From assembly GCF_006345805.1 (NCBI RefSeq), contig NC_043013.1, positions 53,320,001-53,384,000 of the forward strand: a stretch of DNA of 64,000 bases, read 5' to 3'. A model generated the notes under the pieces. The model had not been told where the DNA came from and did not search any database. It worked only from the letters and a program-made list of their open reading frames with translations. Both the position numbers and the translations under genes were made by a program. Source of the DNA: Octopus sinensis. Taxonomy: Eukaryota. Shown here piece after piece: positions 48,241-48,817 of this stretch. Within the stretch, counting starts at the first letter, position 1. Each line of letters begins with the position of its first letter.

Positions 48241-48817
48241 TAGAATGGTTGTATACTGTCAATTAAACGTGACAGTAGGGGATTACACCACCGCTGTTTA
48301 GCCCTAGGAAGCATCGACGCTTCCTGTCGGCTTCGACACATTTTTTCCTGTGTCCTTATATATTTACGTGTAATCCCCTATTGATAGTATACAAGCATTC
48401 TATCGCCCCACCACCGTACATAACTCTATGAGATATTTAGAAATTTAATATTTCTGATTTTGGTGATCAGTGAATAAACTTCACTGAAAATTAGATATAT
48501 ATATTTACGATGTCGAAACATATATCTGCAGCTAGCAGGCTTCTGCTACTCTAGACCGATGATGGGCAAAGACCCTGAAACATGCGGGTCTCTAGATGTA
48601 GGCCTAGCTGTTGGGGGTACTTGTCTCCCCTTCGTAAATATATAAGGACACAGGAAATGTGTCGAAGCCGACAGGAAGCGTCGATGCTTCCTAGGGCTAA
48701 ACAGCGGTGGTGTAACCCCCTACTATCACGTTCACGTTAGATTGACAGTATACAACCATTCTATCGCCCCACCACCGTACATATCTCCCTGAGATATTTA
48801 GAAATTTAATATTTCTA
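48241..48817 (+). mobile_element. Retrozyme-like element: about 1.2 direct units (period 361 bp) plus an inverted 5' segment
   Basis: ctatcgccccaccaccgtaca occurs at 48400 and 48761. 48241-48368 is the reverse complement of about 48633-48763. Flanked by (TA)n. Confidence 0.75.
48550..48596 (+). ncRNA. Type I hammerhead ribozyme motif (CCGAUGA variant)
   Basis: tctaga-CCGATGA-tggg(caaaga)ccct-GAAAC-atgcgg-GTC-tctaga. Stem I extends via ctac/gtag and cagctag/ctagctg. Confidence 0.65.

Follow-up and report, generated by a model that had tools for sequence, protein, structure and literature searches.

The window analysed here, a 64-kb stretch of a 2.72-Gb octopus genome, is rich in (TA)n and contains at 48 kb an insertion laid out as (TA)n, an inverted arm, the end of a truncated unit, a full unit, a 55-nt extension and again (TA)n. 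For one protein of this genome, the nearest Atlas clusters come mostly from molluscs. The left flank is a (TA)n microsatellite (48064-48242), abutted by a minus-strand 5′ arm (48240-48368) that copies unit positions 229-360 in inverted orientation and terminates at a 3′ end that we call E1; this arm was absent from the initial annotation. The sense arm on the plus strand starts 5′-truncated, with the end of a preceding unit carrying a deletion of ~20 nt (48369-48404), and continues into a single full unit of 361 nt (48405-48765), whose period, as proposed earlier for this strand, was confirmed by an 80-nt direct repeat. It is extended by a tail of ~55 nt running from E1 to a second end, E2 (48766-48820, plus strand), where the sense arm stops against the (TA)n-rich repeat of the right flank (48820-48906). 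The unit, the type of a family that we call A, has no long ORF and is non-coding; the reverse transcriptase (RT) plus GIY-YIG ORF of an autonomous Penelope-like element (PLE) is absent from it, and we found no LTR pair at this locus or in the copies read.

The unit has a predicted fold far better than that of shuffled sequences (z -7.8). All of its modules lie on the plus strand: hairpin P1 (cagtga/tcactg, 48467-48487), in which 3/6 pairs covary; a long rod around the ribozyme (48497-48643), with covariation in 11/12 basal and 3/3 apical pairs; a GGACAC/GTGTC hairpin (48645-48663) with the highest sequence conservation among the non-ribozyme motifs; a two-part hairpin of agcc/ggct around ggaagc/gcttcc, followed by GGGCTAAA (48666-48701); and a multibranch domain (48702-48778) whose 9-bp closing helix pairs ~48702-48712 with 48770-48778, 8 of its 9 pairs covarying. 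E1 (~48764) falls in a linker of this domain, and the 3′ strand of the closing helix starts the tail.

Within the rod lies a type I hammerhead motif (48550-48596, plus strand) with stem I TCTAGA/TCTAGA, a CCGATGA core (48556-48562; the variant U4C), GAAA, a U.U at the base of stem II and a predicted cleavage after 48590. Rfam at its gathering thresholds returned nothing in the 64-kb window, and an E-value scan of the family A region against Rfam gave chance matches only, a hammerhead not being among them. The initial annotation had suggested that the CCGAUGA core and a weak stem II may render this copy inactive. Both features are present, and neither is a defect of the copy, since the core recurs in 25/30 A copies (with 2 CCAATGA, 1 CCGGTGA and 2 unmatched), T..T closes stem II in most of them, and both features appear in other lineages: U4C is also found in lineage D and in some B-like copies, and lineage C has a U3-A8 core. 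Stem II moreover shows a compensatory swap from GGG/CCC to GGA/TCC in 9/28 matched A copies. What is private to the 48-kb copy is a change in helix III from CATGCGTG to CATGCGGG, seen in 1/28 matched A copies as compared to CATGCGTG in 22. With this T>G at 48587, the helix III duplex is predicted at -3.5 instead of -12.5 kcal/mol; from this energy model the copy is probably inactive, and, as the locus has only one hammerhead, it is probably a dead end.

In each lineage the common form of helix III is self-complementary, with a different sequence each time (CATGCGTG, CATG, CTCGAG, CCCGGG, CGCG, CCATGG). Self-complementarity of helix III is a dimer signature in the accessible text of PMC4209133, and its recurrence with changing sequence points, by analogy, to dimeric cleavage in this clade. 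The available part of PMC3088659 reports that U4C reduces activity in vitro yet suffices for a viroid in vivo, and that of bioRxiv 10.64898/2026.07.22.740005 reports Xenopus retrozyme dimers without cleavage in 8/9 cases.

A second family, B, lies at the end of the window as an array of 2.8 units of 351-352 nt on the minus strand (63077-64000), bounded by (TA)n and reaching ~66 nt beyond the window end. Its canonical hammerhead motif (63241-63285, minus strand, repeated in the next units) matches RF00163 with 32.2 bits (E 2.6e-6), as compared to a gathering score of 34, and the predicted fold of its unit is likewise better than shuffles (z -5.3). The units at 48 kb and 63 kb had been proposed to be diverged sisters sharing their module order, and we found all the module pairs listed for them. 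One pair was partly luck: the first-module match exists, and its 'ataactc' is a variant of the 48-kb copy, most of the 29 other aligned A rows covering it having 'atatctc'. Aligned globally, A and B are identical at 208/343 positions (z 10.5), a value reached by 0/1000 dinucleotide shuffles. With the hammerhead excised, 181/298 positions (61%) remain identical (z 9.7, again 0/1000 shuffles), and the 5′ and 3′ parts scored alone give z 5.4 and 7.2, as compared to -1.5 for a reverse-complement control. Hence the sister relationship stands, with homology extending outside the ribozyme. A first look gave 2781 (A) and 1727 (B) candidate matches, of which 40 of each were scored, figures that do not represent copy numbers; mean identity was 92.9% among the top 30 A copies and 98.4% among the top 29 B copies.

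Judging by sequence, A and B are members of a clade with six lineages or more. A hairpin pattern designed to avoid the forms usual in A and B matched 2312 times, its reversed control 168 times, and the matches of the former led to additional families. Altogether, 147 distinct near-full units sorted into lineages A, A2, B, B3, C and D plus a single E copy, with family-level identities of 49-87% between lineages, and further variants turned up at the loci of a Tx1-like guest element described below. On every feature testable computationally, these elements are non-LTR retrozymes, for which cleavage and circles are predictions: the units are tandem and non-coding, with periods (361 and 351-352 bp) inside the 150-450 bp of retrozymes and arrays in A, B and C, and each carries a type I hammerhead motif, that of B just under the RF00163 gathering score and that of A having the topology with a U4C core. 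We consider it quite probable that the 48-kb locus is an inserted, probably dead, copy from a clade of ~355-nt non-coding hammerhead elements that has conserved pairing over the whole unit and is likely mobilised in trans by a PLE.

The mobilisation part of this reading rests on the insertion signature; the loci analysed were top matches and are biased to long, well-kept copies. Copies end at two fixed 3′ sites, E1 and E2, which are ~50-60 nt apart and have an equivalent position in the folds of families A, B and C. For A the stops fall at ~360 or 53-57 nt further on, for B at 351 or 45-48 nt further on, and for C at 122-124 or 183-184 of the query. A TA repeat follows within 22 nt of the two stops in 23/28 and 7/8 cases for B, 10/15 and 11/15 for C, and 8/22 and 6/15 for A, against a flank background of 281/3159 (8.9%), so that TA targeting is strong in B and C and weaker in A. 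Some of the stops scored by script are read-through variants; by reading, the true B stops at E1 met TA in 22/22 cases. Both orientations were present at 10/27 A, 8/25 B and 7/17 C loci (25/69 in total). In one family B array (L198/L053, G000:C5:13.459 Mb), TA-repeat letters replace the normal tail start at one E1 junction, which looks as if (TA)n priming had occurred inside the array.

The 5′ ends carry information on the template. In a sample of arms biased to arrays, 1/31 ended within 5 nt of the cleavage site, where about 1 is expected, and 27/31 were long enough to span that site. Without a pile-up of 5′ ends at the cleavage site, and with most arms long enough to cross it, linear monomers cut there are unlikely to be the template. 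In five loci, private variants were common to the units of one locus, which suggests a single template per insertion; against this, divergence was only slightly lower within than between loci (6.7 versus 8.2 substitutions/kb), and identical pairs made up 14/41 versus 193/1285.

These features, namely a partial tandem with an inverted 5′ arm, an optional tail and an AT-rich or (TA)n target, are of PLE type. Partial tandems with an inverted 5′ arm are the insertion pattern that PMC8557442 gives for PLEs in its available text, and in the accessible part of PMC11167929 PLE reverse transcription in vitro starts at two internal sites bounding a tail, with hammerhead cleavage being dispensable. We therefore regard the retrozyme clade as likely moved by a PLE, on the basis of the insertion signature and with no sequence shared with the PLEs examined. 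Tandem copies would be transcribed, and two weak hammerheads would pair via the palindromic helix III and cut slowly, releasing monomers able to circularise. A PLE protein would bind the folded domain that follows the ribozyme on its 3′ side and nick (TA)n DNA, and reverse transcription would start internally at E1 and E2, both of which lie in linkers of the domain; the sequence from one start to the other would be the tail. A template unbroken at the cleavage site, either a circle, which we slightly favour, or an uncut multimer, would yield arrays longer than one unit. The initial annotation had also proposed that conserved non-ribozyme motifs could be recognition sites for an RT, which gains indirect support from the equivalent structural position of both 3′ ends in the three families A, B and C.

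Candidate PLE partners reside in the same genome. Neptune-like PLEs (L177-L184) have RT plus GIY-YIG frames of 775-883 aa, some with a 479-aa frame upstream, and carry minimal hammerheads 65-140 nt ahead of their (TA)n end, with a U4C core in L181 and U3-A8 in others; resident PLE hammerheads thus share U3-A8, U4C or U.U features with the clade. Among the 150 of 5029 GIY-YIG candidates that were scored, neither blastn nor the clade HMM found an autonomous partner with a matching repeat when 30 GIY-YIG loci were compared by their 3′ regions, together with 9 longer regions. The exceptions were units in L078, L088/L185 and L181, which look like separate retrozyme insertions, those of L088 and L181 lying near PLEs.

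The same observations could be read differently, the unit being the pseudo-LTR of a so far unfound autonomous PLE, in which the fold is selected, and the short copies being truncated or derived forms unable to spread by themselves. The hammerhead oddities common to the resident PLEs would fit such a descent, as would the derivation of Xenopus retrozymes from PLE pLTRs described in the available part of bioRxiv 10.64898/2026.07.22.740005, and the PLE search covered 150 of its 5029 candidates. Against it, units follow each other head to tail up to 3-4 times with no intervening ORF, and in the retrozyme loci examined by tblastn there was no RT or GIY-YIG frame contiguous with a unit, only separate PLE fragments near three of them. 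Furthermore, family B is young, as the mean identity of its 29 top copies (98.4%) indicates, and a parent element should therefore be easily visible. We consider descent as a pseudo-LTR unlikely and retain mobilisation in trans.

We found compensatory changes and conserved base pairing across the whole unit, beyond the ribozyme. For 12 well-kept natural copies, hand-picked from the 147 and aligned by sequence only, RNAalifold predicted 70 pairs, of which 46 showed two-sided change. In the non-ribozyme part, 38/58 pairs had two-sided compensatory changes and 90.2% of 687 cells were paired, the 58-pair structure being taken from the same alignment on which it was scored; controls with slid partners gave 11-17 covarying pairs and 39-47% of cells paired. 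A tree-aware null, in which columns evolve independently and are refolded, was simulated 150 times and yielded 2.2 such pairs on average and never more than 8; its columns changed slightly less often than the real ones (1.71 versus 1.93 changes per column). A further measure, that of further pair types, did not exceed shuffles (37/500). To lower the circularity, we used only the three families C, D and E to predict a structure, which was then scored on A and B. It was kept at 49/65 pairs in A (slid partners, 144/373) and at 52/66 in B (slid, 153/371), and pairing was preserved in 12/20 two-sided changes between A and B. An automated test, with single-sequence minimum-free-energy structures on the 147-copy alignment, gave no clear separation from slid controls, with two-sided changes kept at 60/119 in B, 76/118 in A and 84/136 in C, as compared to about 35-64% for slid partners; register shifts and decayed copies are the probable cause of this weak separation.

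One listed module did not form as proposed. In the intact unit, the gggg/cccc hairpin had 0.0 expected pairs, as compared to 12-17 for the long rod in 11/12 copies, and it was predicted in most fragments that start at the cleavage site, where the 5′ partner is absent. It is an alternative conformer of the modelled fold, and a role after cleavage is speculation. The few source copies would be the ones in which the fold is under selection, by way of RT binding, priming and RNA stability.

Compensatory changes might also arise from homogenisation of inverted repeats at the DNA or RT level, through template switching, rather than from selection on RNA structure. The perfecting of palindromes is a known process, and strand switching is frequent in these elements, as their inverted arms attest. 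The covarying helices, however, include strands 70-140 nt apart, G.U pairs of the sense orientation and loop sizes are kept, single pairs are swapped amid unchanged ones, and the hammerhead helices covary across lineages in the same way as the non-ribozyme helices. On these grounds we hold homogenisation to be very unlikely and favour selection on the RNA.

Sequencing runs bear on another alternative, a viroid-like replicon that is copied from RNA to RNA by a host polymerase and leaves genomic copies as by-products. At least half of the sampled words of family B occurred in 20 runs from 11 studies under 8 organism labels, none recorded as RNA, and unstranded contigs from these runs, which we guess to be RNA, covered both A and B units. 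Two runs, of two other organism labels, yielded a 383-nt family B contig that closes on itself (352+31), which fits a circle and a tandem array equally. Size, the rod-like fold and the hammerhead would suit such a replicon, and RNA-RNA replication is named as a possibility for mussel circles in the accessible text of PMC7229834. By contrast, the genome holds thousands of candidate matches with a strict retrotransposition signature, and the hammerhead motif was noticed, by reading, in one polarity only; as the RNA nature of the runs is a guess and tandem DNA yields an identical closed contig, we find RNA-to-RNA replication highly improbable, and prefer retrotransposition by a PLE.

Least probable of all, to the point of near-dismissal, is a SINE-like element moved by an APE-type LINE (RTE, CR1 or Tx1), since, despite such LINEs being resident (window 14128-18416) and a Tx1-like element being physically tied to the clade, the units lack a poly(A) or simple-repeat 3′ tail of their own, they show head-to-tail arrays, inverted arms and two internal 3′ ends as PLEs do, and the Tx1-like element sits within units between target duplications and is hence the guest.

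This guest is ~1.65 kb long, with one ORF of ~450 aa and an AATAAA end (L218:5850-7500, G000:C1:119.99 Mb; further loci L219-L248 and L266-L295). Its ORF matches a zinc knuckle at E 0.0013, short of the Pfam cut-off, and has ZCCHC3-like Atlas neighbours, and it is from this ORF1 type that we infer the Tx1 label. The guest lies directly 5′ of a ribozyme in 23/30 copies found via its 3′ end, two of them a local duplicate, and in 22/30 found via its protein, the two sets overlapping at 9 loci. Its hosts are A-, B- and C-like families whose target sequences are unlike one another, and its insertion point in the retrozymes is the 5′ strand of the long rod. Exact target duplications of 12-17 bp flanked it in 11/17 of the guest 5′ regions, two of these outside retrozymes. 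The guest also occurs in tandem runs with a spacing of ~1.7-2 kb. In the 1.5-kb flanks at 60 loci (9 overlapping) near its ORF1 or 3′ end, we saw no ORF2-bearing partner.

HAL1 elements are ORF1-only elements. With these and with target-specific Tx1-clade LINEs, which target multicopy repeats according to the available part of PMC4494074, the guest shares a CCHC/ZCCHC3-like ORF1, an AATAAA 3′ end, target duplications of 12-17 bp and a preference for a single site within a multicopy repeat; unlike them, as far as that source describes, it targets a ribozyme element, and its target sequences are strongly divergent between host families. In the literature searched, we found no retrotransposon that targets ribozyme elements.

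The clade resembles the metazoan non-LTR retrozymes in the available text of PMC7229834 (mussel, of 350-390 nt, coral and axolotl) in its ~350-nt non-coding tandem units with one type I hammerhead and a stable predicted fold, in its thousands of candidate copies, those read having no LTR pair, and in its co-resident PLEs, and it shares the U.U at the base of stem II with HHR_Amex2 of axolotl. Beyond what that text gives for these retrozymes, the octopus clade offers unit-wide covariation (at least six lineages, 49-87% identity), mapped ends, tails and inverted arms; unlike them, its cores are often U4C or U3-A8, and its cleavage and circles are predicted. The words 'octopus' and 'cephalopod' do not occur in the main text of PMC7229834, nor do 'ribozyme' and 'retrozyme' in the accessible portion of a recent octopus repeat annotation. 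In the literature searched, which reached few subscription papers and repeat databases, we found neither the clade nor covariation across a whole unit nor the guest element described.

With the non-autonomous PLE derivatives of bioRxiv 10.64898/2026.07.22.740005 and the non-autonomous Chlamys of PMC8557442, as described in the available parts of both, the clade shares a proposed PLE mobilisation and multicopy head-to-tail insertions. Those derivatives have sequence in common with the pLTR or 3′ end of a known PLE, as in Xenopus, where the PLE origin is argued from sequence in the accessible part of the former source, while the link of the octopus clade is its insertion signature. Another close system is the Anolis Poseidon PLE, for which the available text of PMC11167929 describes two internal starts 3′ of the hammerhead that define the tail, AT-rich targets and copies that do not start at the hammerhead cut. 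Poseidon is, per the same text, autonomous, with a binding region that overlaps the ORF start, and the PLE tail is given as 30-40 bp, whereas the octopus clade is non-coding and has a tail of 50-60 nt.

We tentatively propose, as a possibility well short of an even chance, that the non-ribozyme fold is a portable scaffold for loading and priming a PLE RT, by which the RNA hijacks a PLE with the two starts set by structure and no shared sequence, and that the Tx1-like guest finds the elements by a structural or protein-bound feature instead of a set DNA sequence and exploits their transcription and self-cleavage to express itself. If this were true, the elements would form a three-tier parasite system. 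The findings touch on two questions, namely how animal retrozymes move and which RNA features a PLE reverse transcriptase recognises. The clade offers a covariation-supported RNA model of a whole retrozyme and two start sites predicted at nucleotide level, as well as natural weak-core ribozyme variants in many copies and candidate PLE proteins from the same genome, which together make the PLE-retrozyme hypothesis testable by the existing in vitro assay.

Several other features were seen. In the far 3′ flank of L066 and at ~2190-2390 of the oriented locus L080, a distinct small element adjoins (TA)n; its hammerhead has a stem I of 17 bp and a CCGACGA (U4C) core. Within the window, the LINE at 14128-18416 is nearly intact, with an ORF1 (Myb-like, CCCH finger) and an APE-RT ORF2 in two frames, and a fragment of a Mariner-type transposase (Transposase_1, E 1.8e-21) lies at 57197-58063. 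On the minus strand, an open frame with C2H2 zinc fingers at 25009-25734 is perhaps a host gene exon. Two-copy tandem repeats occur at 7732-8689 (468 bp) and at 46220-46585 (184 bp), the latter of which we take to be SINE-like.
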